A stretch of DNA of 49,646 bases, from IMG/VR virus record IMGVR_UViG_3300045988_091802; one strand, given 5' to 3'. Position 1 is the first letter of the stretch, and every line of letters starts with the position of its first letter. The DNA comes from a virus. The position numbers and the translations under genes were made by a program. Shown here one piece after another: positions 2,977-44,674 of this stretch. The notes under the pieces are model-generated. The model was not told the DNA's origin and did not search any database. It worked only from the letters and a program-made list of their open reading frames with translations.

Positions 2977-3097
2977 GCGCACAGAAATACCCCAATTTTC
3001 GACTAAAACGGCGATTGCGGTAAAATGGACGTGCGAAGTGGAAAAACGCGCCAAATGGAAGAAAAAGGGCAAATTAGGAAACTTCAAAAAACAAGGT

Positions 3098-3697
3098 ATG
3101 AAAATATACATAAGCGGACAGATAACCGGGCTTCCGGTTGAGGAATACACGGAAAGGTTTAACAGGGCGGAAGCCTACCTTACCGGGAAAGGCTACGAAG
3201 TAGTAAACCCACTTCGCAACGGTGTACCTTCCGGCGCACGTTGGCAGGAACAGATGAAGGCGGATATAAGGCTATTGCTTGATTGCGGCGCAATTTACTT
3301 GCTTGCTAATTGGGAGAAAAGCATCGGGGCGACTTTGGAACGGGAAATAGCAAAAGGGCTGGGCTTGATTATTGAGTATGAGAAAACGCCGAAGCACCGC
3401 GATATAAAAGCGGCGATACTAACAGTTATGGGCGTTGATTTCAAATCAATAGCGGAAGACAGCCGTAACCGTTGGCACGTTTACGCCCGGATGATTTACG
3501 CGCACCATTGCAAGAAGCGCGGAGAGCATACGCAAGGGATAGCGGAAGAAACGAGCCACGACCAAAGCACGATCTGTTACTATTTGCGCAACTACGATAC
3601 GGAATACAGGTTTAACCGTGAGTTCAGAGCCGCAGCCGAAAAGGTTGCGACCCTTCTAAGTGAAAAGTTAAGTAACCCAACGGACGTATTAAAGTAA
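3098..3697 (+). CDS. DUF4406-like domain (nucleoside 2-deoxyribosyltransferase-like fold) fused to a DnaA domain IV-like HTH
   Basis: The N-terminus (MKIYISGQITGLP...NWEKSIGATLEREIA) matches the DUF4406 pattern. The C-terminus (WHVYARMIYAHHC...HDQSTICYYL) resembles the DnaA C-terminal HTH. The ORF track offers a GTG at 3038, but I prefer ATG 3098. Confidence 0.6.
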   Translation: MKIYISGQITGLPVEEYTERFNRAEAYLTGKGYEVVNPLRNGVPSGARWQEQMKADIRLLLDCGAIYLLANWEKSIGATLEREIAKGLGLIIEYEKTPKHRDIKAAILTVMGVDFKSIAEDSRNRWHVYARMIYAHHCKKRGEHTQGIAEETSHDQSTICYYLRNYDTEYRFNREFRAAAEKVATLLSEKLSNPTDVLK

Positions 3698-3703
3698 TTC
3701 GAT

Positions 3704-3961
3704 ATGGAAAAGATAGAACAAAAACGTAGGGAGTGCAAACAACCTTCATTGCAACAGCTTGTATCGTCGTTAAAGCCGTGCAAGATATTAGACGAAGTAG
3801 AATATCAAATCCTATTCACAAGAAGGAAGGACAATAAAGAACCGGATAAATGGAGCGCAGGTTATTATAGCTTCGATAATTGCTGTTGGCTTTTGGTTGG
3901 GTACGGGAAAACTTTAAGAAGTGCAATTTTACACCTTAAAAAGCAATTAAGATTGAGATAA
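3704..3961 (+). CDS. Hypothetical protein
   Basis: 85-aa ORF packed tightly between neighbouring genes. Confidence 0.5.
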   Translation: MEKIEQKRRECKQPSLQQLVSSLKPCKILDEVEYQILFTRRKDNKEPDKWSAGYYSFDNCCWLLVGYGKTLRSAILHLKKQLRLR

Positions 3962-7263: not shown

Positions 7264-7698
7264 ATGGCAAAGATGACCTTTGAAGAATTGCTGGCAAAAG
7301 CCAACGCGGAAACAACGAGGGCAAAGCCACGCCATGAGGAAAGCCAGTTGCAGCGTATTTGCGTAAAGTGGTTTAGGCTTCAGTACCCGGAATTGGCTAT
7401 CCTCCTTTTCGCCGTGCCAAACGGAGGGGCAAGAAACAAGCGAGAAGCCGGGATAATGAAAGCGGAAGGAGTAACCGCCGGAGTTGCGGATATAATACTG
7501 CTGATACCTTCCGGCGGCTACGCTTCACTTTGCATGGAGTTCAAGACCGAAAAGGGACGGCAGCAGGAAACGCAGAAGTTATGGCAACAGGCGGCAGAGC
7601 GAGCCGGGAACAAATACGCCATAATACGCAGCTTTGATGATTTTAGAACCGAAGTAAAGAACTACTTACCTCCTCCACCTTATAAGCGCAATACGTGA
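7264..7698 (+). CDS. VRR-NUC domain nuclease
   Basis: PD-(D/E)xK-type pattern ...GVADIILLIP...LCMEFKTEKG... is typical of VRR-NUC. Confidence 0.7.
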   Translation: MAKMTFEELLAKANAETTRAKPRHEESQLQRICVKWFRLQYPELAILLFAVPNGGARNKREAGIMKAEGVTAGVADIILLIPSGGYASLCMEFKTEKGRQQETQKLWQQAAERAGNKYAIIRSFDDFRTEVKNYLPPPPYKRNT

Positions 7699-7761
7699 AG
7701 TGTTGGCGAAGTGTTTTAGGGTTTACCGTATCATAATAATACGATAAACCCTTTAATTTTG
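7697..7761 (+). promoter_or_regulatory. Conserved promoter-type module P1: GAAGTGTTGGCGAAGTGTT, then GTATCATAATAATAC, then -7 box TAATTTTG
   Basis: 19-mer at 7697-7715, 15-bp palindrome at 7728-7742, TAnnTTTG at 7754-7761. The module is 20 nt upstream of ATG 7781. Confidence 0.6.
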
Positions 7762-7780: not shown

Positions 7781-8086
7781 ATGAACATTAAACAGATTAA
7801 AGAAAAGGTTTTGGGCTTCATTAAGAACATCCCGGCAGACAAAAAGAAGCACCTTATAGCCGGATTTATTGTTTGCGCCATTGTAAGCATGTTCTTTGGC
7901 TACATTATTGGCTTCATTTCGGCGTTGGTAGCCGCTGCTGGTAAAGAAGCCTACGACTACTTTACGAAGAAAGGAACGCCGGAGCTTGCCGATTTCATTT
8001 ACTCGGCGGTAGGCGCGGTTTGTTTCCTTATTGTGTCGGCATTGATTACATTGCTTTTTTACGCTTTTGTCATGCGTTCTATTTAG
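7781..8086 (+). CDS. Small integral membrane protein
   Basis: Three hydrophobic segments: LIAGFIVCAIVSMFFGYIIGFISALVAAA, FIYSAVGAVCFLIVSALITLLFYAFV. Confidence 0.6.
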   Translation: MNIKQIKEKVLGFIKNIPADKKKHLIAGFIVCAIVSMFFGYIIGFISALVAAAGKEAYDYFTKKGTPELADFIYSAVGAVCFLIVSALITLLFYAFVMRSI

Positions 8087-13991: not shown

Positions 13992-14006
13992 GTATCAATA
14001 TAATAC
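13992..14006 (+). promoter_or_regulatory. Dispersed 15-bp motif copy: GTATCAATATAATAC
   Basis: Same 15-mer as 43336-43350. Intergenic, between the portal and MuF genes. Confidence 0.55.
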
Positions 14007-14103
14007 AAATCGGGCGTTTTGGGCGCGTTTTAACTACCGATGTGTGACAATATACCACAAGGGAATAAGACGCGCTTAAACGCCAAATCTTAGAAAAATA
14101 ACT

Positions 14104-16422
14104 ATGCCCGAAAAGGAAAACAACATAATAGCGCAGCTTAGAGGATTTGACGCGGAGCATTACGCGGCAACGGAACGTTACGCCCGGCAGATTGAGCGGC
14201 TATACAATACAGCTTGCGATGAATTTGCACGCATTGGCGCAGGAATAGAAGAAACGGAAACCGTGTTTTCATTCGACAAGCTGCCGAAAACGAGAAAACA
14301 GGCGCAAGGGATATTAACCCGGCTTGTAGGCAAAATGGAAGCCGTCATTACGACCGGGACAAAAGCCGAATGGTTGGCAGCTTGCAAAAAGAACGACGCT
14401 TTTATAGCCGCAATACTACGCACAGCCAAACTGACCAAAGAAGAAGTAGAGCAATACCAAAGCCGAAACCTCGAAGCACTTCGCACGTTCCAACGTCGTA
14501 AGGTTGAAGGATTGGGATTAAGCGAGAGGGTATGGAGGTATGCCGGAGAATTGAAAGACGCTATGGAATTGGGCATAGACGTAGCGTTAGGGGAAGGCAA
14601 GAGCGCACAAGAGTTAAGCCGGGATTTGCGGAGCTACCTCCAAGAACCGCACAGGCTTTATAGGCGTGTGCGTGACAAAGGCGGAAACTTGCGTTTGAGC
14701 AAGGCGGCTAAGTTGTACCATCCCGGACAAGGTGTTTACCGTTCTTCGGCAAAGAACGCGCAAAGGTTGGCTCGGACGGAGGTAAACATGGCATACCGGG
14801 AAAGCGAGTTTTTAAGATGGCAGAAGTTGGATTTTGTTGTAGGCTTGCGCGTCATGCTGAGCAACAACCACACTACGACCAACAGCAAAGGGGAAAAAAT
14901 TCCGCTTGTAGATATTTGCGACGAACTATGGGGCGATTACCCTAAAACGTTCAAGTTTACAGGTTGGCATCCGCAATGCCGTTGCTTTGTTGTGCCTATT
15001 TTGTCGGACTATGACGAATATAACCAAGACAGGGCGAACAGGCTAAAAGCGATTGTTAGGAAAGCGAAGTACGAAAGCCTTCCTTCACGCCGTACCATCA
15101 CGGACGTACCGGCTAAGTTTCGGGAATACATAGACAGTATTAAGGAACGAGCTAAGGGCTGGAAGTCTATGCCCTACTACATTCGGGATAATTTCAAAGG
15201 CGGTAAGATAGAAGGCGGACTAAACGCAAACATACCGACAAAGACGATGAACAACGTAAAACCGTGTACGGAATTTGACAGGGAAATAAACTACCTTAAA
15301 CGTTGGGCATACGCTTTGGGAGGCGATATGTCAAACATTGACGCGCTTAGAACCGCAGGAAACCGGGAAGCATTGGAAGCCGAAATAGAAAAGGTTAGAG
15401 ATGTCATGGACGGCAATTTAGACAAATGGCACGATGCGCAGAACGAACTAAGCCGGGTTATTACGGTAAGCCTAAAAGGGTATTCGGATATACAAAGCGA
15501 GTTCACGAAGATTTTGCAGGACAACGCATCTTCAACAAAAAGATACTACGGAGATTGTATTAGCCGCTTGAAACAGGCGGTAAAAGACGCTTTGGCTAAG
15601 TTGGCAAAGGCAAAGGAAGAAGAAGCCAAAAGCGGAGATAAGCCGCATAAGGCACTACTTAAAAACTACACTACCGAAGCGCAGGTAGATAAGACTTTCA
15701 AGGAGATAAACGACGGGCTTACCGAAAAATGGTTTGAGAACGGCGACCTTAAATTAGGAGTAGAAACGCATAGGGGTAACAACGGCTCTACGTGGATGGA
15801 CGGCAGAACCTACCTAACAACGGATAGGCTTGCACGGGTAAAATCGGCATTGGGCAAAATAGGGCAAGGAAAATCGGCGGAGATTACAGAACTTGAAGCC
15901 GACGCGATGGCTACATTTTGGCACGAGATTACGCACAACAGGAACAAGCGAGGGAACATGTATTTAACAGATACGCAAAGGGCATTTATGGAATTAGCCA
16001 ACGAGTTTGTAGCGCGAAAGTCTTTGCCGGAGTTTTACCGGGTATTGGGCTGCAAAGAAACGCCGCAAGCGCAATTCATAAGCAACCGCAATTCAACAGG
16101 CTATAACGACATGGTTAATAACTACGATTTGGTAATTAGGGAATTGGGACTTAACGCTGATAAGGCATTGGCGACCGTTAGGAAGAATTTGTTTAACGAA
16201 GTTTACTCAGACCAAGCAACCGGGCTAAAACAAGGTCTTATAGATGGAGGACTTAAACGGCTGGACGGAAAGAAAATAAAGGCTTCGGAGCTAAACAGCC
16301 TATTAAAAGCTATAAGGACAACTAAGGGAAGAGTTTATATGAACATAAACGGAGATTGGGTAAAGGAAAGCCGGGAAGAACAAATGGTTAAATGGTTGAA
16401 GAAAAACGGATATTTGGCATAA
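14104..16422 (+). CDS. Head morphogenesis protein (SPP1 gp7/Mu F-like) with a roughly 440-aa C-terminal extension carrying HExxH
   Basis: MuF hallmark GWHPQCRCFVVP is near residue 300. The C-terminal region contains FWHEITHNR...MELANE, which is zincin-like. Confidence 0.75.
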   Translation: MPEKENNIIAQLRGFDAEHYAATERYARQIERLYNTACDEFARIGAGIEETETVFSFDKLPKTRKQAQGILTRLVGKMEAVITTGTKAEWLAACKKNDAFIAAILRTAKLTKEEVEQYQSRNLEALRTFQRRKVEGLGLSERVWRYAGELKDAMELGIDVALGEGKSAQELSRDLRSYLQEPHRLYRRVRDKGGNLRLSKAAKLYHPGQGVYRSSAKNAQRLARTEVNMAYRESEFLRWQKLDFVVGLRVMLSNNHTTTNSKGEKIPLVDICDELWGDYPKTFKFTGWHPQCRCFVVPILSDYDEYNQDRANRLKAIVRKAKYESLPSRRTITDVPAKFREYIDSIKERAKGWKSMPYYIRDNFKGGKIEGGLNANIPTKTMNNVKPCTEFDREINYLKRWAYALGGDMSNIDALRTAGNREALEAEIEKVRDVMDGNLDKWHDAQNELSRVITVSLKGYSDIQSEFTKILQDNASSTKRYYGDCISRLKQAVKDALAKLAKAKEEEAKSGDKPHKALLKNYTTEAQVDKTFKEINDGLTEKWFENGDLKLGVETHRGNNGSTWMDGRTYLTTDRLARVKSALGKIGQGKSAEITELEADAMATFWHEITHNRNKRGNMYLTDTQRAFMELANEFVARKSLPEFYRVLGCKETPQAQFISNRNSTGYNDMVNNYDLVIRELGLNADKALATVRKNLFNEVYSDQATGLKQGLIDGGLKRLDGKKIKASELNSLLKAIRTTKGRVYMNINGDWVKESREEQMVKWLKKNGYLA

Positions 16423-17449: not shown

Positions 17450-17464
17450 GTATTAAGATGATAC
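17450..17464 (-). promoter_or_regulatory. Dispersed 15-bp motif copy on the minus strand: GTATCATCTTAATAC
   Basis: The reverse complement of 17450-17464 matches GTATCAnnnTAATAC. On the minus strand it is followed by TATTTTTC, a near -7 box. Confidence 0.5.
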
Positions 17465-17710
17465 TTTGCTTTCAGAACTTCGCTTTGCTTCCTGTTCATT
17501 AAGCCACTTTGTTTGCCGTTCAAGCCCGGATAGCTTCAATTTATGTACGACAAGACGCGCCCGGATAATACCGACCTTTTTTGCGGCTTCTTTATTACCC
17601 GATTGCCTTACTTTGCGTTGGCGATAGGGCTTAGTAAGGAATGCGACCACAAGAGAAACAAAGAAAACACCAAAGCACCCACCGGCGAAATAAAGCAAAT
17701 AGGCTTCCAT
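17453..17710 (-). CDS. Membrane-anchored small protein (85 aa)
   Basis: The start shares a TAATG overlap with the lipoprotein stop. N-terminal TM segment YLLYFAGGCFGVFFVSLVVAFL is followed by a basic tail. Confidence 0.55.
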   Translation of the reverse strand: MEAYLLYFAGGCFGVFFVSLVVAFLTKPYRQRKVRQSGNKEAAKKVGIIRARLVVHKLKLSGLERQTKWLNEQEAKRSSESKVSS

Positions 17711-18156
17711 TATTCCGGGTTTATTACTTCTACGATACTTTCCACTTCGACCCATTGGTTATGGTCATTAGGGGATAAAGTAAAAGAAGTGCTTAGTTTG
17801 TATTGACCGGGCTTTTGCGGCGTGTATTGGATTGTAAAAGGTTGCGTAGTGGAAACGCCTATACATTCATTACCGACATAAGGAGTATCAAGGAAGTAGG
17901 CTACTTCTTCGACAGAACCGTTTATCTGTTTCAGCATTTCCGCATCAGCATTACAATACGGCGAGAAGTTCACGGAATAAGTACGACCTACATAGATAGT
18001 ATTCAGTTGCTCGGTACTTCCGACTTCGCTAAAATAAGCGGAAGCCCTTACGGTTGTACTAACGTAGTTTTGTTCTTCCGGCTCGTTTGTTTCAGAGAAA
18101 CACCCGGACATTACCACCGACGCTGAAAGTAGCAAGAAATAAATTAGCTTCTTCAT
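17710..18156 (-). CDS. Lipoprotein (148 aa)
   Basis: Signal peptide with lipobox MKKLIYFLLLSASVVMSGC. Confidence 0.7.
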   Translation of the reverse strand: MKKLIYFLLLSASVVMSGCFSETNEPEEQNYVSTTVRASAYFSEVGSTEQLNTIYVGRTYSVNFSPYCNADAEMLKQINGSVEEVAYFLDTPYVGNECIGVSTTQPFTIQYTPQKPGQYKLSTSFTLSPNDHNQWVEVESIVEVINPE

Positions 18157-18635: not shown

Positions 18636-18699
18636 GAAGTTTTGGCGAAGTGTTTACCGCTCAACCCGATAAAGTATCACTTTAATACGATTATTTTTG
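18636..18699 (+). promoter_or_regulatory. Conserved promoter-type module P2 upstream of the head operon
   Basis: GAAGTTTTGGCGAAGTGTT at 18636-18654, GTATCACTTTAATAC at 18674-18688, TATTTTTG at 18692-18699. ATG at 18725. Confidence 0.6.
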
Positions 18700-34235: not shown

Positions 34236-34293
34236 AACACTTCGCCAACACTTAGCGGACGTATCAACTTAATACTGCTTATTGATATTTTTG
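34236..34293 (+). promoter_or_regulatory. Conserved promoter-type module P3 upstream of the DGR operon
   Basis: Inverted copy of the 19-mer (AACACTTCGCCAACACTT at 34236-34253), GTATCAACTTAATAC at 34261-34275, TATTTTTG at 34286-34293. ATG at 34317. Confidence 0.6.
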
Positions 34294-39394: not shown

Positions 39395-39985
39395 ATGAAA
39401 TGGATTACCCGTATTACATTATTGATTTGTCTAACATTGCCGACTTTGTTATCCGGGTGCAGTACGACACGGAAGACCGCAAAAGGCACGGAACAGACAA
39501 ACGTAACCGCCATACAGGAAACAGACCGGACAGAAGAAGAAAAGCGTTTGGCGGAAGTCATAACCAATACAGAAACAAACGACCGTACAAACGTGGTTAT
39601 CGAGTTCACGAAGACGGAGTATGCCGACGGGAGTACGGAAACGAAGACAGAACCGCCCGAACAACATCCCGGCGAAAAAGTGAAACCGAAACCGGGAACG
39701 GAAAGCAAAGGCGGCATAAAGTCAGTTACCACCGGAAAAATAACCATCAACGGCGACCGGAAGGAAACGACAGCGACAACAGCGACGGAAACAGGCGAAA
39801 AGAAAGCCGAAACACAGACAACCACCGGAGTAAGCGCGGACAAGACCGCGACCGTAGAAACGGAACAGGAAAAGAAGCCTAAAAGGGGCTTGCTTGATTG
39901 GATTTTCTTAGCCGGGATAGTGGCAGCTTGCGCCGCCGGAATTACTTACGCCGTCAGACGCTTTAAGATTAAGGCTGGGAAGTAA
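39395..39985 (+). CDS. Lipoprotein with a C-terminal TM segment; unimolecular spanin candidate
   Basis: Lipobox LPTLLSGC at the N-terminus, T/E/K-rich linker, C-terminal TM segment LLDWIFLAGIVAACAAGITYAV. Last gene of the lysis cassette. Confidence 0.55.
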   Translation: MKWITRITLLICLTLPTLLSGCSTTRKTAKGTEQTNVTAIQETDRTEEEKRLAEVITNTETNDRTNVVIEFTKTEYADGSTETKTEPPEQHPGEKVKPKPGTESKGGIKSVTTGKITINGDRKETTATTATETGEKKAETQTTTGVSADKTATVETEQEKKPKRGLLDWIFLAGIVAACAAGITYAVRRFKIKAGK

Positions 39986-40019
39986 AAACGCCCACAAAAA
40001 GCCAAAAATGGGCGTTTTT
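39985..40019 (+). terminator. Rho-independent terminator
   Basis: AAAAACGCCCA...TGGGCGTTTTT. Confidence 0.65.
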
Positions 40020-40220
40020 ATGGGCGTTTAATTCTTAACTTGCTGACATTCAGCGTTAGAAGCGGAGAGAAAGGCTCTAAGAGGTTTATTTTAAGACATA
40101 GGCAGACGTACCCAATAAGTATATAACTGCTTATGTCTTATTGTTTTAGTTGATACCATTTGAAACTGCCATAATCAAACATTAAATCAGTATTTGGGCG
40201 TATTTTTGGGCGTGTGCATT
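40020..40220. other. Candidate attP region
   Basis: Non-coding and adjacent to int. Imperfect inverted repeat TAAGACATAGGCAG (40092-40105) / CTGCTTATGTCTTA (40127-40140), flanked by paired TGGGCGT repeats. Confidence 0.45.
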
Positions 40221-41537
40221 TTACCCATTATTATCAGTTTTCCCGAAGTTGTCAAACCGTGCCATATTTTCGGCTTTTGCCGCATCTACTATTTTAATAT
40301 AAGGCTTCATAGCTTTATAGTCGCTGTGTCCCGTCCATTCCATTATAACCGAAGCAGGAATACCAAGGCGAAGCGCATTAACTATAAAAGTTCGCCTTCC
40401 GCAATGTGTGGTAAGAACCGCATATTTAGGTACTACAACCTCTTTGCGTTCACTACCACTATACGACACGACACTAACAAGCTCATCCAACCCGGCGATT
40501 TCGGCAGCTTCATGTAGATGCTCATTCATTTTTACGTTGCTTAATACGGGCAAAGCCTTATTTCCGGGCAAGTGTATTCCCTTGTATTTATCAAGTATTG
40601 CAAGAGCATAGCTATTTAGCTCAATATGTAGCCTATCGGTTGTTTTCTTTGTAACAATAGAGATATAAGGAGGAACGGCATCGCGTTTTACGTCAGAAGA
40701 TTTAAGCCGCGCTACGTCAGAATAACGCAACCCGGTAAAACAACAAAAACAAAACACATCGCGAACAGGAGGTAACGACGGTTTATTAGGGGGAAACTTG
40801 AAGTTCATAAAGTGCTGCAATTCGTCCCACGTCAAAAATATGACCTCTTTACAGTCCAATCCCTTGAAGCGTGGGCGATATTGCAAATGAGCAGCACCGG
40901 AGTAATAACCGTTAGCGGAAGCCCAACGCAAGAACCAACGAACGAAACCTACGTTTTTGGCGACCGTGGTATTAAGCTGTCCTTCTTCTTTTTGCAGATA
41001 CGACACAAAGGCGGCAAAGTCAGACTTTGAAAAATTATCTAAGGAGAGTTCCGGGCGAAAGTTCATTAAGTGATGTTTGATACTTGCAAATTTAGTATAG
41101 GTTGCTTTCGTCCAATTATTCGTAACACCCATTTCGGAAGTGAACCTATCAAAGACCTCGAAGAAGCCCGGCGATTGTTGCTGGGCTTCTTCTTTTTCAT
41201 CGGTAACATGCCGACCGATTGAAGCATAGAAAAGCGGCTTAAATTCTTTCGGCGTTGGCGTTCGGTGGTGTTCAAGTTCAAAACGCGTTAAGACTTCTTC
41301 GACCTTAGAAACCATATTAGAAAGACCCCTATTTATTTCGCCCGAAGTTTGCTTATAGCAATTCTTAGAGCCGAGCGTTACCCGTTGGCTTTCCTTATCC
41401 CATTTGTTAGCGTCAATTACATACCCGGAATGAATATCTATACGATACCCGGAATAACATACGCGCAAACGGATAGGAACGCTTTGGGCGTTCATACCTT
41501 CACGGGTTGATAGTTGAAACTTAACGCTATACTTCAT
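40221..41537 (-). CDS. int: Tyrosine recombinase/integrase (Bacteroidetes type, with an N-terminal arm-binding domain)
   Basis: Catalytic pattern ..GLRYSDV.., ..HCGRRTF.., ..GHSDYKAMKPYI... N-terminus is typical of Bacteroidetes integrases. Confidence 0.9.
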   Translation of the reverse strand: MKYSVKFQLSTREGMNAQSVPIRLRVCYSGYRIDIHSGYVIDANKWDKESQRVTLGSKNCYKQTSGEINRGLSNMVSKVEEVLTRFELEHHRTPTPKEFKPLFYASIGRHVTDEKEEAQQQSPGFFEVFDRFTSEMGVTNNWTKATYTKFASIKHHLMNFRPELSLDNFSKSDFAAFVSYLQKEEGQLNTTVAKNVGFVRWFLRWASANGYYSGAAHLQYRPRFKGLDCKEVIFLTWDELQHFMNFKFPPNKPSLPPVRDVFCFCCFTGLRYSDVARLKSSDVKRDAVPPYISIVTKKTTDRLHIELNSYALAILDKYKGIHLPGNKALPVLSNVKMNEHLHEAAEIAGLDELVSVVSYSGSERKEVVVPKYAVLTTHCGRRTFIVNALRLGIPASVIMEWTGHSDYKAMKPYIKIVDAAKAENMARFDNFGKTDNNG

Positions 41538-41842
41538 TTCTTATCGGTCATCATTTCGCCGCGCCCGGTAAGCAACCAATGCGCGGATATAGGATAATTA
41601 GCCACCATAGTATATAAGGCTTCTACTTCCAAATTCTTATACCGCGTTTGATAACCCGGCTTAGGGGTTGTTCCATAGCCTAACCGCATTTCCCTATAAC
41701 GCGGTGCGCTAAGGTTGTGCAGTTCGCAGAAGTGGCTCAAAGAATCTATTTTGCCAAGATTGACAAGCATATCAATAGCCACGAAGAACCGGCGGTTTAT
41801 GGCTTCGCTAATTGGCGAAGTCTTTACTATTGTCCGGGGCAT
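41534..41842 (-). CDS. HTH DNA-binding protein; excisionase or regulator candidate
   Basis: 4-nt overlap with the int start. HTH-like region and the ..HWLLTGRGEM motif. Confidence 0.5.
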   Translation of the reverse strand: MPRTIVKTSPISEAINRRFFVAIDMLVNLGKIDSLSHFCELHNLSAPRYREMRLGYGTTPKPGYQTRYKNLEVEALYTMVANYPISAHWLLTGRGEMMTDKK

Positions 41843-42048: not shown

Positions 42049-42122
42049 TTCTTGTTGAAATGGCAGTGTTACCCACCCAAACAAAAAGAAGCGAAAATAG
42101 GGGCGTTTCTGTGCGTTTGGGA

Positions 42123-42137
42123 GTATCACTATAATAC
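42123..42137 (+). promoter_or_regulatory. Dispersed 15-bp motif copy: GTATCACTATAATAC
   Basis: Intergenic, between the repressor gene and the int operon. Confidence 0.5.
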
Positions 42138-42220: not shown

Positions 42221-42649
42221 CTATACGGCAGCGGCACATCCGGCATTGCTTTCCGGTTGGGCAGCGGCTTTTTTGTTCTGTTCGGCGAGCATTTCAATGG
42301 TACGCTGTTGGCTTTCTATAATAGAGAGCAAACGCGCCTTTTCTTCTTTTGCGTCTTCAAGTAGTTTATACAGCATTTCGGAAGGCGCAATTTCGGCACT
42401 TTTCGGCATGGCATCCGCTTCCGGGCGTACAGAAAGAAGCATTTCGCCCTCCCCACGCATTAGCCAAACGGGGTTAAGTTGCGGGTATTGTTCGGTTATT
42501 GCTTCTAATTTGTCTGCCTTAATAGACCTTTTAATACTGGCTATATACGCAGAACCTACGCCGATTGTGCGGCAAAATTCCCTTTCGCTTATATTTAGAT
42601 AAGCTATGAACTTCTTAATTCGCTCTTTTACACCACTTTCATTTTGCAT
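42221..42649 (-). CDS. XRE/CI-like HTH repressor candidate
   Basis: N-terminal HTH (LNISEREFCRTIGVGSAYIASIKR) and WLMRGEGEM. Divergent from the early rightward genes. Confidence 0.65.
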   Translation of the reverse strand: MQNESGVKERIKKFIAYLNISEREFCRTIGVGSAYIASIKRSIKADKLEAITEQYPQLNPVWLMRGEGEMLLSVRPEADAMPKSAEIAPSEMLYKLLEDAKEEKARLLSIIESQQRTIEMLAEQNKKAAAQPESNAGCAAAV

Positions 42650-42836
42650 ATTGTATCCTAATGTATCTAAATGTTAAAAATCAAGCGCACGGCGAAAATT
42701 GTATGCTTTTTATTTGCTTATTGTATGCTTTTACATTACATTTGCACCGTGTTAGTTATTCATTCGCAAAGATAAGCAAAAAATTAGCGGACAGCAATAG
42801 CGTAAACACGCTATATTACAGAAAAATAAAGGCTAT
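42650..42836. promoter_or_regulatory. Immunity switch region with candidate operators and promoters
   Basis: TTGTATGCTTTT at 42699-42710 and 42721-42732, plus TTGTATCC at 42651. -7 box TACATTTG (+) at 42737-42744 and TATCTTTG (-) at 42767-42774. Confidence 0.5.
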
Positions 42837-43335: not shown

Positions 43336-43350
43336 GTATCAATATAATAC
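43336..43350 (+). promoter_or_regulatory. Dispersed 15-bp motif copy: GTATCAATATAATAC
   Basis: Identical to the copy at 13992-14006. Intergenic. Confidence 0.55.
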
Positions 43351-43511
43351 GATTAACAGGATAACACTATATAAGCCAACGGAAAGAGAACCCCTCTTGT
43401 AAAGGCTATAAACCGGTGACAGCGGAAACAGCACCGCAGCGCGGACGCTTTGGGCGTAGGTGGGGCAAACCCACCACCGCGCACGAAATAGTAACTAAAA
43501 ACAAAAACATT

Positions 43512-43754
43512 ATGGTATTGACAGAAACAAATAGAAAGGTAGGACGGCTCGGTTTCCTTAGCGGACTGAACCAAGTGAAGATGGGCGTTTACAAAGAGGT
43601 GGTAGCCGAATTGTATAAGGCTTTGGGAATAAACAACCGTAACAGCTTCTACGCATACAGGGACGGGAAGATAGAACCCAAGGTTACGCAAGCCGAAGCA
43701 GTGGAAAGCGTGTTTAACAGGTACGGGATAACTGAAAACATTTGGGGAGCATGA
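43512..43754 (+). CDS. Hypothetical protein (80 aa)
   Basis: ATG 43512. The stop overlaps the next start (ATGA). Confidence 0.5.
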   Translation: MVLTETNRKVGRLGFLSGLNQVKMGVYKEVVAELYKALGINNRNSFYAYRDGKIEPKVTQAEAVESVFNRYGITENIWGA

Positions 43755-44146
43755 AACTACACGCGCTATTGAGCAAACGGGAAACGCAAGTAGCCGAATT
43801 GCTTGCATGGGGCGCGAGCAAAAAGGAAGTGGCAAGCAAGCTATTTGTTTCCACGCGAACCGTAGAGAACACCGCACGGAACATATACGCAAAATTGGGA
43901 ATACAGAAGGCTACGGAATTGTGTGTATGGTGGTTTTGTACCAAGTGCGGAGTACCCGTAAGTCTTGACCCGTTGAAACGAGCATTTACGGCAATCCTGC
44001 TTCTTTTGGTTTTGCTTCCAAGAGAACTTACAGGAAACGGCGATTTGTTCAGAATTGGCAGGGACAGACGGATAGCACGGGTTACAAGAACTTTCCGGCG
44101 ATACGGAGAGGATGACGGAACGGAAGATTTTTTCAGAACATATTAA
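43751..44146 (+). CDS. LuxR/GerE-type HTH regulator with a C-terminal hydrophobic segment
   Basis: LSKRETQVAELLAWGASKKEVASKLFVSTRTVENTARNIYAKLG, followed by a TM-like segment AFTAILLLLVLL. Confidence 0.65.
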   Translation: MKLHALLSKRETQVAELLAWGASKKEVASKLFVSTRTVENTARNIYAKLGIQKATELCVWWFCTKCGVPVSLDPLKRAFTAILLLLVLLPRELTGNGDLFRIGRDRRIARVTRTFRRYGEDDGTEDFFRTY

Positions 44147-44157
44147 ACGGGTGGATC

Positions 44158-44385
44158 ATGAAGAAGGAAATAGCATTGTTAGTGGCAATAGTCGTATTTG
44201 GTACGATTTGGATAAGCCACTTAAAGGCACAGATAGACTACGCGGACACGGAATGCCCGGTTTGCGGAAGTTGCGAAGTTTTAGACTTCGGGGAAAGCGA
44301 GCATGGGGAAAGGTGTTACTGCTACGATTGCGAAACAGAATTTTACATAACGCCAATTACAGATTATGAGCAAGAACAGTATTAA
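44158..44385 (+). CDS. Small membrane-anchored zinc-ribbon protein
   Basis: N-terminal TM segment, then CPVCGSC...CYCYDCE. Confidence 0.5.
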   Translation: MKKEIALLVAIVVFGTIWISHLKAQIDYADTECPVCGSCEVLDFGESEHGERCYCYDCETEFYITPITDYEQEQY

Positions 44386-44674
44386 CACAAGGGTAATAGA
44401 CCTGACGCTCGGCGAACTTTTGGACGCAATAGAAGCAAGGATAAGGGAAACCCGGAAAGAAGACGCGCAAGGCGAAGACAACACGCCTAAGCCAAAACGG
44501 TTTGTTTACGGGTTGAAGGGATTGCAAAAACTTTTTGGGTGCAGCAAAACAACAGCTTCACGCATTAAGGCATCCGGCAAGATAGACAAGGCTATAACGC
44601 AAGTTGGAGCATTGATAATAATCGACGCTGATATGGCTTTGGAACTTGCAGGGAAAAACAAAGGGAAACAATAA
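44366..44674 (+). CDS. DUF3853/excisionase-like HTH protein
   Basis: ..LFGCSKTTASRIKASGKIDKAITQVG..IIDADMALELAG resembles Bacteroides HTH_17/DUF3853 proteins, from memory. Confidence 0.5.
   Translation: MSKNSINTRVIDLTLGELLDAIEARIRETRKEDAQGEDNTPKPKRFVYGLKGLQKLFGCSKTTASRIKASGKIDKAITQVGALIIIDADMALELAGKNKGKQ

Follow-up and report, generated by a model that had tools for sequence, protein, structure and literature searches.

Introduction

Temperate Bacteroidales phages rank with the commonest viruses in the human gut, and to our knowledge almost nothing is known of how their lytic genes are controlled. Regulators described elsewhere offer points of reference. The sites of Mu C and Mor, and the T4 MotA box at -30, are dyad sites for phage activators at late promoters, used in a fixed register. 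NarL binds 7-2-7 sites whose half-site centres are 9 bp apart, and GerE is a stand-alone HTH protein that both activates and represses late genes. The early protein p4 of phi29 represses early promoters and activates the late one from a few clustered sites, together with the histone-like p6. In P1 (C1) and phiC31 (c, with conserved inverted repeats) the sites are those of the immunity repressor, whereas RK2 KorB is of the ParB family and exerts its effect at a distance. The stoperators of mycobacteriophage L5 are asymmetric 13-mers, present at more than 20 sites and working in one orientation, which the immunity repressor binds as a monomer with two DNA-binding domains (PMC9283540). Many Bacteroidales temperate phages have repressors that lack a cleavage domain, and show no DNA-damage response (bioRxiv 10.64898/2026.06.25.734096; PMC8354205).

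Here we analyse the window, the whole stretch of 49,646 nucleotides under study, which is a temperate phage of the order Bacteroidales (a gut prophage), complete and circularly permuted, with a length of about 49 kb. No GenBank phage was matched by megablast with two large parts of the window, and protein searches matched only distant Bacteroides fragilis and Porphyromonas phages. An earlier note on this DNA described a 15-bp imperfect palindrome at seven places, likened it to L5 stoperators, and named a CI-like repressor and a LuxR-type regulator as candidate binders. Set beside the systems above, and judged by sequence comparison, the palindrome is most likely a DNA site for a conserved phage regulator, other than the immunity repressor, that controls operons. 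The result is a testable regulatory code that consists of eight fixed palindrome sites, three late promoters built on one three-part plan, separate immunity-repressor repeats and a short list of candidate proteins.

A conserved palindrome at gene junctions

The 15-bp palindrome GTATCAnnnTAATAC has seven exact copies in the whole window, both strands included, where dinucleotide-shuffled sequences have a mean of 0.01. The scan, with the exact pattern GTATCANNNTAATAC, returns the same set of coordinates and strands that the earlier note had listed (S1 to S7 in Table 1), and the comparison with shuffles bears out its claim that the element is non-random. Allowing one mismatch, a check proposed in that note, adds no copies in the window; with three mismatches the count is 50 against 36 expected, which is background level. 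In an unbiased count of all 6-N3-6 word pairs in the window, GTATCA/TAATAC ranks first, and in many relatives the first rank is held either by this pair or by the perfect palindrome GTATTA/TAATAC. The site architecture is a 6-3-6 dyad. Its commonest form in relatives is the perfect palindrome GTATTA-N3-TAATAC, and the family consensus is GTATYA-N3-TAATAC, with half-site centres that read 9 bp apart on the sequence. Two corrections apply to the earlier note: the word common to S2 and S7 is the 18-mer AACGTATCAATATAATAC, and an eighth, degenerate copy, GTATTAAAGTAATTC (S8), had been overlooked; it is kept at the same junction in all complete relatives.

The placement of the sites at gene junctions holds, so that the palindrome is confirmed as a genuine, non-random element at such junctions. 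The claim that all seven copies are intergenic needs one exception, S3, which covers the last three codons and the TAA of an ORF. Similarly, some sites do stand at operon starts, as expected from the proposal that they mark operon or gene-block boundaries, but five of the eight are intercistronic and have no promoter of their own. Three to four sites adjoin -7 boxes, and the other four to five mark junctions without a promoter. Start or stop codons are adjoined or overlapped by S8, by S3, and by S7 in the L077/L082 lineage.

Table 1. Coordinates of the palindrome sites, promoter elements, repeats and principal genes in the window.
Feature	Coordinates	Strand	Sequence	Context
S1	7728-7742	+	GTATCATAATAATAC	11 bp upstream of packaging-operon -7 box; tip of hairpin spanning 7718-7752
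S2	13992-14006	+	GTATCAATATAATAC	between portal gene (ends 13983) and head-morphogenesis/ADP-ribosyltransferase-like gene (starts 14104)
S3	17450-17464	-	GTATCATCTTAATAC	within leftward cassette; overlaps end of ORF 17453-17755(-)
S4	18674-18688	+	GTATCACTTTAATAC	3 bp upstream of head-tail-operon -7 box
S5	34261-34275	+	GTATCAACTTAATAC	10 bp upstream of tail-fibre-block -7 box
S6	42123-42137	+	GTATCACTATAATAC	leftward operon, between CI-like gene stop (42221) and next gene (probable ATG 42009)
S7	43336-43350	+	GTATCAATATAATAC	upstream of operon opening with small gene and LuxR-type gene
S8	3686-3700		GTATTAAAGTAATTC	degenerate; overlaps TAA of ORF 3038-3697; ends 3 bp before ATG at 3704
-7 box	7754-7761	+	TAATTTTG	downstream of S1
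-7 box	18692-18699	+	TATTTTTG	downstream of S4; kept in relatives down to 39% protein identity
-7 box	34286-34293	+	TATTTTTG	downstream of S5
Tandem repeat	7697-7715	+	GAAGTGTT-ggc-GAAGTGTT	11-bp period; ends 38 bp before -7 box
Tandem repeat	18636-18654	+	GAAGTTTT-ggc-GAAGTGTT	ends 37 bp before -7 box
Tandem repeat, inverted orientation	34236-34254	-	AACACTTC-gcc-AACACTTA	upstream of S5
Direct repeats and -7 box	42699-42744	+	TTGTATGC twice (42699, 42721), then TACATTTG (42737-42744)	rightward early promoter
CI-like repressor	42221-42649	-		HTH and predicted coiled coil
Small gene, 80 aa	43512-43754	+		overlaps LuxR-type gene start; predicted four-helix protein
LuxR/GerE-type HTH protein, 131 aa	43751-44146	+		Pfam GerE, E = 5e-14 (cut-off 23.5 bits)

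The sites are strongly conserved. Four complete relatives and the window (five complete genomes) have the same eight sites, at conserved positions and in one order, and no others, which answers the question of conservation in related phages that the earlier note had raised; S8 is found in 4/4 complete relatives. Over the five genomes, variable columns number 8/96 in the core, 13/24 in the spacer and 200/320 in the flanks (Fisher p = 2e-22), that is, 8% in the core against 54-62% in spacer and flanks. With the core conserved and the spacer and flanks free, the proposed protein-binding dyad holds up: 12 near-invariant bases around a free 3-bp spacer fit the pattern expected of a dimer on double-stranded DNA.

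The orientation of the sites tells a different story. Six of the seven exact copies do point in the direction of local transcription in the window, as had been remarked, but a two-sided binomial test gives p of about 0.12 and the bias is not kept in relatives. At orthologous sites the half that carries the asymmetric C flips (GTATTA..TGATAC) or is doubled, as the Barnesiella sp. An55 prophage and other relatives show at S1 and S5. Because this C/T asymmetry flips, the bias is not functional, contrary to the meaning that had been given to it.

Beyond the complete relatives, the palindrome is present in prophages from at least five host families. Most of the divergent prophage genomes that were checked also have sites of the S8 form, some 5.6-10 kb downstream of their LuxR-type gene; the orthology of these with S8 is taken from position and flanking sequence. 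A distant clade has a relaxed palindrome, GT[GAT]TTA-TAG-TAA[TCA]AC, seen only in the sampled late-gene stretches, and its repressor is unrelated. In phages with the packaging genes in common (62% identity), the palindrome is another one, GTGATTAYAnTAnAAYCAC, placed 7-8 bp upstream of the homologous -7 box; in the stretches searched, up to the contig ends, these phages have no homologue of the LuxR-type protein, its small neighbour, the CI-like repressor, the HTH protein encoded at 41534-41842 or the DUF3853 protein. These comparisons show a palindrome that, to judge by its conservation and distribution, is under strong selection and travels with the early regulatory module rather than with the late genes.

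Promoters, tandem repeats and individual sites

TAnnTTTG is the -7 consensus of Bacteroidetes primary-sigma promoters. Perfect boxes of this form follow S1, S4 and S5 at the gaps given in Table 1, are conserved in relatives, and stand 19-40 nt before an ATG. Family-wide, the gaps between site and box fall in two classes, 2-4 bp and 7-11 bp. The -33 element TTTG, which would lie 19-21 bp upstream of the -7 box, is absent at the late promoters, where the sequence reads as palindrome or flank at that position. S1, S4 and S5 each lie downstream of a tandem GAAGTGTT repeat, so that the three late promoters share a three-part layout of tandem repeat, palindrome and -7 box. The distance from the end of the tandem repeat to the -7 box is 37-38 bp at both S1 and S4 in the five genomes; relative to this fixed tandem repeat, the palindrome is displaced by 8 bp at S4 as against S1/S5. 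The tandem repeat is probably the site of a second regulator. Over three different specificity groups, the palindrome centre is found about 17-18 bp upstream of the -7 box. A scan with sigma-70 promoter and terminator models was set aside, as its counts equal those in shuffled sequence and the promoter model is inapplicable to Bacteroidetes.

The remaining sites differ in their surroundings. S2, S6, S7 and S8 have no -7 box. At S2 there is no conserved box downstream, and the site is missing from more distant relatives. S3 has a near-consensus box, TATTTTTC, 7 bp downstream. S6 adjoins GGGCGTTT-type repeats. S7 is flanked by a conserved GGGTAAGGG before the site and by a conserved structured leader after it. 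Only S1 qualifies as an intrinsic terminator, with a stable hairpin followed by UUUAAUUUUG.

Candidate binding proteins

The palindrome is probably the site of a phage-encoded protein. The two candidates of the earlier note differ in how their recognition helices vary in relation to the palindrome. Gene presence or absence does not discriminate between them, the entire module being syntenic across all 80 relatives.

The CI-like repressor, which has no match to a Pfam peptidase domain, has direct repeats at its own promoter. The divergent region at 42650-42836, which separates the CI-like gene from the first one on the rightward side, contains TTGTATGC/TGTATC direct repeats and lacks the palindrome, so that an operator of the lambda CI/Cro type does not describe the element. 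The form GTATAATAATAATAC occurs in the leader of the rightward early promoter only in the most distant subclade. CI-like helix 3 and the direct repeats at the divergent promoter vary together between subclades. The CI-like repressor probably has its true operators in the TTGTATGC repeats and, since helix 3 and these repeats vary between subclades and the palindrome does not, this protein is an unlikely binder of the palindrome. In a PHROGs scan the CI-like protein is weakly linked (E = 7e-4) to phrog_9710, the family of the 41534-41842 protein, and the two may be paralogues.

The closest solved relatives of the LuxR-type protein by sequence are LiaR/VraR, VpsT, GerE and DosR (PDB matches, E 5e-8 to 1e-4). 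It has a hydrophobic C-terminal segment and neither a receiver nor a ligand domain. Its recognition helix, RTVENTARNIY, is invariant in the window clade and wherever the TAATAC half-site is found. The same helix is invariant in prophages recorded from Phocaeicola, Bacteroides, Prevotellaceae, Muribaculaceae, Paramuribaculum and Barnesiella, and in almost all of these the palindrome lies upstream of the LuxR-type gene, just as S7 is conserved upstream of the LuxR-type operon. In the distant clade, the helix is RTVEN-H[TAI][RK]-NIY alongside the relaxed palindrome, and helix variants and palindrome variants match loosely. An apparent symmetric double change, GTTTCAnnnTTAAAC, in two divergent prophages resembled covariation with an N-to-S change in the LuxR helix; that reading was dropped because the context is conserved and probably coding. 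The de novo search for palindromes upstream of divergent LuxR-type genes was too noisy. As the earlier note suggested, the LuxR-type protein is a reasonable candidate by its sequence, and we tentatively regard it as the best one, at somewhat less than even odds, but the same phylogenetic profile is shown by four other HTH-type proteins, encoded at 43512-43754, 41534-41842, 44366-44674 (DUF3853) and 3038-3697 (DnaA_C-like). The first of these is the small overlapping neighbour of the LuxR-type gene, for which a fold search gave only a non-significant likeness to XRE-type HTH folds (E > 1); it is a candidate binder of the tandem repeats.

A proposed early-to-late switch

Our best explanation as a whole, with a probability of about 0.4, is that an HTH-dimer regulator from the early regulatory module reads the palindrome and so governs an early-to-late switch. 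The regulator would most likely be the LuxR-type protein, co-expressed with the small protein of the overlapping gene, and it would mark the genome at eight fixed points. At the late promoters (S1, S4, S5 and probably S3), its site would fill the zone from about -20 to -37, directly upstream of the -7 box, and we infer that the regulator and the binder of the tandem repeats would together replace -33 recognition and switch the late operons on. At the promoter-less junctions (S6, S7, S8, S2, and S3 in part), the bound dimer would be a roadblock or an autoregulatory operator, directed at the leftward operon with the CI-like gene and the integrase, at the regulator's own operon, and at the early-to-middle junction. 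The palindromes may thus be activator sites, an option the earlier note had mentioned, as one part of this model.

Some observations stand against the model. Activators normally need a fixed register, yet S1/S5 and S4 differ by 8 bp in where the palindrome stands. Repression would suit -7 boxes that are perfect as they are. S2 lies within the late operon, and blocking transcription there would be counter-productive. All eight sites could be accounted for by roadblock or repression alone, because five sites have no promoter and several abut a start codon. Weighing the two forms of action, we lean only tentatively to a palindrome that both activates and blocks; one that only represses is almost as likely.

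The fullest version of the model would be an undescribed two-part switch for late genes, in which the small neighbour sits on the tandem repeats and the LuxR-type dimer on the palindrome replaces the -33 element, redirecting the unusual primary sigma factor of the host to the late promoters, while the same dimer blocks early and integrase transcription at the promoter-less copies. Such a switch would be widespread in temperate gut Bacteroidales phages, with relatives that have exchanged both DNA elements and kept the layout. In all its parts this is unlikely, a conjecture drawn from the comparisons above. If the regulatory code itself is confirmed, late operons would become predictable in thousands of uncultured prophage genomes, and the code would supply parts for inducible expression in Bacteroides and a route to asking what triggers these prophages.

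Alternative explanations

The closest competitor is a global silencer operator, similar to a stoperator, in which a lysogen repressor (the CI-like protein or the HTH protein of 41534-41842) would hold the eight sites and block both late initiation and intercistronic elongation, so that the lytic blocks and the integrase are silent. It would readily accommodate the 5/8 sites without a promoter, several of which abut or overlap stop or start codons, the perfect -7 boxes, and a palindrome whose position shifts next to a fixed tandem repeat. A block at S6, immediately past the CI-like gene, would permit expression of CI without integrase, and the possible paralogy through phrog_9710, weak at E = 7e-4, would relate the two proteins. 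Dispersed operators of this type are documented in phage L5 (PMC9283540). Against this explanation, which we think unlikely if well worth keeping in mind, the palindrome is invariant across subclades with differing CI-like helix 3 while the repeats at the CI promoter follow the helix. Immunity operators normally diversify, and under a common operator all the relatives would have one immunity. The distant clade has an unrelated repressor and no such palindrome in about 10 kb of its regulatory and early region, yet has it at late promoters. The recurring distance of about 17-18 bp from palindrome centre to -7 box in three specificity groups also suggests a positional constraint.

The binder could also come from the host, as a conserved Bacteroidales transcription factor or nucleoid protein co-opted by the phage. 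The same palindrome in prophages of at least five host families would be natural in that case, but it follows the phage early regulatory module and not the host or the late genes, and neither Bacteroides fragilis phage BF503P1 nor MT835542 has it. At the genome loci, past the left end of the prophage (more than about 3.8 kb upstream of the LuxR-type gene), there is no copy of the palindrome whose TAATAC half-site is intact, in what is a small sample of host DNA. The Bacteroidetes LexA motifs are GGA-N5-TCC and CTAA-N5-TTAG (PMC8565304), and because these differ from the palindrome, a LexA (SOS) box is ruled out. A host factor is altogether improbable. Still less probable is a common function at the RNA level, as a terminator, processing site, nut-like antiterminator loading site or translational operator. 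Read-through could transcribe all sites in the sense direction; S8, S3 and some S7 sites abut start codons; and a 16-bp hairpin with S1 at its tip (-14.8 kcal/mol, z = -3.3) precedes UUUAAUUUUG, its outer stem showing compensatory changes among relatives. For six of the seven sites, however, folding is no better than in shuffled sequence (z from -1.3 to +0.7), S4 comes after a divergent region and lies outside a read-through transcript, the stem has a C-A mismatch on the sense strand of the window, and it is kept as sequence and not by covariation, around a free loop, where hairpins bound by proteins as RNA are usually the opposite. A search with Rfam gave no match at gathering score anywhere in the window and none at E <= 1 around S7. 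A shared hairpin function is rejected because only S1 folds stably. Finally, the palindrome could have no regulatory role, and be a boundary sequence that promotes module exchange by recombination, or a product of mere descent, in keeping with its place where modules meet in a mosaic family of phages. A sequence of 15 bp is too short to support homologous exchange, and mere descent fails to explain 8% variability in the core against 54-62% in spacer and flanks, the dyad symmetry, or the tight coupling to the -7 box at three sites; we give this reading next to no weight.

Comparison with known systems

A literature search found no description of this palindrome motif, and its nearest likenesses lie in other phages and families. 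The Cluster A stoperators (L5 gp71; the TipsytheTRex repressor) are similarly short, specific sites found genome-wide at promoters and in short intergenic spaces, with coding sequence nearly free of them. The likeness to L5 stoperators drawn by the earlier note does not extend further, and the comparison of sequences places the palindrome outside that class, resembling it in layout only: it is a 6-3-6 palindrome and not an asymmetric site, has eight copies and not more than 20, is indifferent to orientation (its asymmetry flips), and does not follow the CI-like immunity repressor. The operators of P1 C1, phiC31 c and RK2 KorB are also scattered in about ten or more copies, both near promoters and far from them, under one global regulator; none of these systems is from Bacteroidota, and none has the present sequence.

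Among dimers of the NarL/FixJ/GerE family (NarL, DosR, LiaR/VraR, GerE), we find the GerE domain of our candidate and, in the DNA, an inverted repeat with a free centre and the 9-bp half-site spacing. The candidate differs from them in having no receiver or ligand domain and in its hydrophobic C-terminal segment, and we know of no consensus in this family that the GTATYA half-site matches. With Mu C, Mor and MotA, the late promoters here have in common a good downstream element, no -35/-33 element, a phage-specific site overlapping the missing element, and a regulator from an early operon. They differ in that the distance to the -7 box varies, one promoter having 3 bp and two others 10-11 bp, that five sites are promoter-less, that the promoters are of the Bacteroidetes TAnnTTTG type, and that the candidate protein belongs to an unrelated family. 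For phi29 p4, the difference is one of arrangement, as the present sites are spread over 49 kb and not gathered in one control region, and the likeness is one of logic, the early-to-late switch that our preferred model would share with it.

The palindrome and its conservation

The palindrome, a 15-bp dyad of two 6-bp arms around a 3-bp centre, is real and biologically meaningful. An exact pattern scan for GTATCANNNTAATAC returns all seven copies listed in the earlier note, at the same coordinates and on the same strands, where dinucleotide shuffles give an expectation of 0.01; allowing one mismatch adds no further copies, and with three mismatches the count in the window equals background. When every 6-N3-6 word pair in the window is counted without bias, GTATCA/TAATAC ranks first, and in many relatives the top rank is taken by this pair or by the perfect palindrome GTATTA/TAATAC. 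Scanning with the family-level consensus GTATYA-N3-TRATAC (at most one mismatch) recovers an eighth, degenerate palindrome, S8.

We assembled four complete relatives from overlapping loci and compared the five genomes, window included, anchored on the sites. All four relatives (4/4) have the same eight sites in identical order and no extra ones. Variable columns number 8 of 96 in the core, 13 of 24 in the spacer and 200 of 320 in the flanks (Fisher p = 2e-22), and the core changes are mostly at symmetric positions 5 and 11. Two arms under strong selection with a free centre are the pattern expected of a dimer reading double-stranded DNA. The dimeric HTH site proposed earlier holds up as a prediction from sequence. 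By RNA folding, only S1 beats shuffled sequence. The orientation argument did not survive the comparison. In the window each site pairs a C-bearing half (GTATCA) with a T-bearing one (GTATTA), and 6/7 exact copies are co-directional with transcription. Among orthologous sites the perfect palindrome is the commonest form, the flipped form GTATTA..TGATAC appears at S1 and S5 in relatives, and S3 and S5 of the prophage in Barnesiella sp. An55 have C on both halves, from which we conclude that the orientation bias is without functional meaning.

Coordinates of the palindrome sites and of associated features.
Feature	Position	Strand	Remarks
S8	3686-3700		GTATTAAAGTAATTC
S1	7728		exact TAnnTTTG box 11 bp downstream; before packaging block
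S2	13992
S3	17450	-
S4	18674		exact TAnnTTTG box 3 bp downstream; before head-tail block
S5	34261		exact TAnnTTTG box 10 bp downstream; before tail-fibre block
S6	42123
S7	43336
Tandem GAAGTGTT-N3-GAAGTGTT, 11-bp period	7697-7715, 18636-18654	+	upstream of late promoters S1, S4
GAAGTGTT tandem repeat, inverted	34236-34254		upstream of S5 promoter
S1 hairpin	7718-7752		16 bp
Four direct TGTATC/G repeats	42651, 42662, 42699, 42721		within 42650-42744; by early -7 box
Rightward early-promoter -7 box	42737-42744		TACATTTG
Inverted repeat TTTGCA-N19-TGCAAA	42741-42772		directly after rightward early promoter
Structured RNA leader	43375-43495		~120 nt; between S7 and small gene starting 43512
GGGCGTTT-type direct repeats	40009-40028, 40197-40215		flank presumed attachment site by integrase gene
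GGGCGTTT-type direct repeats	14012-14031, 42101-42119		beside S2 and S6
Head-gene leader pairing	14013-14092		leader of 772-aa head gene
772-aa head-morphogenesis protein	14104-16422		phrog_16625, family annotated Bxa ADP-ribosyltransferase, E = 3.5e-77
Protein with DnaA C-terminal HTH	3038-3697
CI-like repressor	42221-42649	-
LuxR/GerE-type protein	43751-44146	+

The phage and its relatives

The integrase has the Bacteroidetes Arm-DNA-bind_5 domain, and DUF3873, DUF3853 and portal proteins are also encoded. Because the IMG/VR contigs of close relatives start at about window position 39956, we read the window as a circular permutation of a ~49 kb prophage. From there the leftward part holds integrase, two small genes and the CI-like gene, followed rightward by early genes, the LuxR-type operon, replication, packaging, head, tail and lysis. 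Homologues of the LuxR-type protein are found in genome records labelled Phocaeicola, Bacteroides, Prevotellaceae, Muribaculaceae, Paramuribaculum, Barnesiella and others, and the close relatives include a 48.7-kb Barnesiella sp. An55 contig. A nucleotide search of GenBank phages with two large parts of the window, and protein searches, found no close named phage. Eight family contigs (L405, L407-L409, L412, L415, L416 and L418) are filed in MAGs labelled Clostridia, Christensenella, Borkfalkiaceae or Eubacteriales; for a Bacteroidales phage, these labels are most likely mis-binning.

Sites at late promoters

S1, S4 and S5 precede exact matches to TAnnTTTG, the -7 element of Bacteroidetes primary-sigma promoters. 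These boxes are 19-40 nt upstream of the first gene of each block, and the arrangement of palindrome and box is retained in relatives down to ~40% protein identity. None of the three promoters has a TTTG -33 element; the palindrome occupies that position. At S1 and S4, 37-38 bp separate the end of the tandem GAAGTGTT repeat from the -7 box in 5/5 genomes; the palindrome is 8 bp nearer the box at S4, yet this distance is unchanged. A second regulator probably binds the repeat.

S1 is also the tip of a hairpin (-14.8 kcal/mol, z = -3.3) followed by UUUAAUUUUG. In relatives the outer stem, AGGGTTT/AAACCCT, has changed in a compensatory way (AGCGTTTAA/TTAAACGCT and AGGCTTT/AAAGCCT). The hairpin is probably the terminator of the upstream operon, with the T tract doubling as the -7 box.

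Remaining sites

S3 covers the stop codon of a leftward gene, with a near-consensus box 7 bp downstream, and S2, S6, S7 and S8 have no conserved -7 box. S8 overlaps the stop codon (TAA) of ORF 3038-3697, and 3 bp separate its end from the ATG at 3704; of the divergent prophage genomes checked, most have sites of its form ~5.6-10 kb downstream of the LuxR-type gene. In one lineage S7 ends 3-4 bp from the start of the small gene beside the LuxR-type gene, and in the most distant subclade GTATAATAATAATAC lies within the leader of the rightward early promoter.

The conserved RNA leader after S7 folds by RNAalifold at -26 kcal/mol with 26 pairs, 7 of them with compensatory double changes (11 relatives). 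It has no match in Rfam, is missing from the lineage whose S7 abuts the start codon, and could be an attenuator of the LuxR-type operon. In the leader of the 772-aa head gene, GGCGTTT..GCGCGTTT pairs over a long range with AGACGCGC..AAACGCC, and the two sides covary among relatives (one example is GCGCGTTTC with GAAACGCGC). The GGGCGTTT-type repeats near the integrase gene may be arm-type sites.

Candidate binding proteins

The palindrome is probably the site of a phage-encoded protein. The earlier note had proposed the CI-like repressor or the LuxR-type protein, and only the latter stands as a candidate. The recognition helix of the CI-like repressor varies by subclade (GSAYIASIKRS, SSSYVMSIKKS, SSAYVESIKQS, SPAYVSSMRKS, GSAYIQSIRKS, SSSYVNNIRQS), and the direct repeats at its divergent promoter vary in step (TTGTATGC, TGTATGGC, TGTTATGC, TACTGCA). 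These repeats, changing together with helix 3, are probably the true immunity operators of the CI-like repressor. The palindrome is identical across all these subclades, which makes the CI-like repressor an unlikely binder. The inverted repeat after the rightward early promoter is conserved in all relatives, with a variable loop.

The recognition helix of the LuxR-type protein, RTVENTARNIY, shows no variation throughout the clade or among prophages recorded from six host taxa, and in almost all prophages with this helix a palindrome is found upstream of the gene. On such comparisons it is the best candidate binder, if a tentative one; it stays a candidate because four other HTH-type proteins of the early regulatory module have the same occurrence profile. 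After the HTH it has a hydrophobic stretch, AFTAILLLLVLLP, which reaches ~18 residues in relatives and could be a membrane anchor or oligomerisation helix, and then an arginine-rich tail.

A distant clade retains the gene order integrase, small gene, LuxR-type, DUF3853, ATPase, but its repressor is unrelated. The LuxR helix of this clade is RTVEN-H[TAI][RK]-NIY, and its palindromes are relaxed, GT[GAT]TTA-TAG-TAA[TCA]AC, seen only in the late-gene stretches sampled; none was found in its regulatory and early region (~10 kb). Its upstream tandem repeats are wholly different, GTTATGC or TTATCCAC, DnaA-box-like. In L176-L214, direct repeats of this kind (TTATCCACA, GTTATGC) replace the GAAGTGTT repeats ~30-60 bp upstream of the -7 box preceding a tail gene. 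Between the window clade and this one, palindrome and LuxR helix both shift slightly, and tandem repeat and putative helix of the small neighbour protein both shift greatly. These matching degrees of change weakly suggest, by parsimony, that the palindrome belongs to the LuxR-type protein and the tandem repeat to its small neighbour.

In another phage group, which shares the packaging genes (62% identity), the stretches searched, running to contig ends, yield no homologue of any of the five regulator proteins used as queries. This group (L250; also L249-L266 and L437-L458) has another palindrome, GTGATTAYAnTAnAAYCAC (in L250 at 7963-7981 and 898-916), with one copy 7-8 bp before the homologous packaging operon's -7 box and a second 4 bp ahead of a DUF6291-like gene. 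Neither Bacteroides fragilis phage BF503P1 nor MT835542 carries the palindrome of the window. The palindrome follows the early regulatory module, neither the late genes nor the host. The Bacteroidetes LexA box was considered and rejected; the palindrome is not that box.

Mode of action

The reading we prefer, with a probability of about 0.35, is a dual role in which a regulator made early would switch the late promoters on and, at the remaining copies, would block transcription of the early genes, of the integrase and of its own gene. Activation at the late promoters would explain the missing -33 element, the distance of ~17-18 bp from palindrome centre to -7 box in three different specificity groups, the restriction of the distant-clade site to late promoters, and the position of the candidate gene in an early operon. 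Pure repression, or a roadblock, at all palindrome sites also fits and is only slightly less probable; it accommodates the sites that lack a promoter, the variable spacing between palindrome and -7 box, and the perfect -7 boxes.

Comparison with known systems

The layout of the sites recalls the stoperators of phage L5, as had been suggested. Those are asymmetric 13-mers read by a monomeric two-domain repressor, orientation-dependent, present in more than 20 copies and tied to immunity (PMC9283540). The palindrome sites have none of these defining features, and the stoperator label does not hold. We found no description of the motif in the searchable literature. Parallels for the dispersed sites are the operators of P1 C1, phiC31 c and RK2 KorB; further parallels are the dyads at Mu C-dependent late promoters, the MotA box that T4 has at -30 and the p4 switch of phi29.
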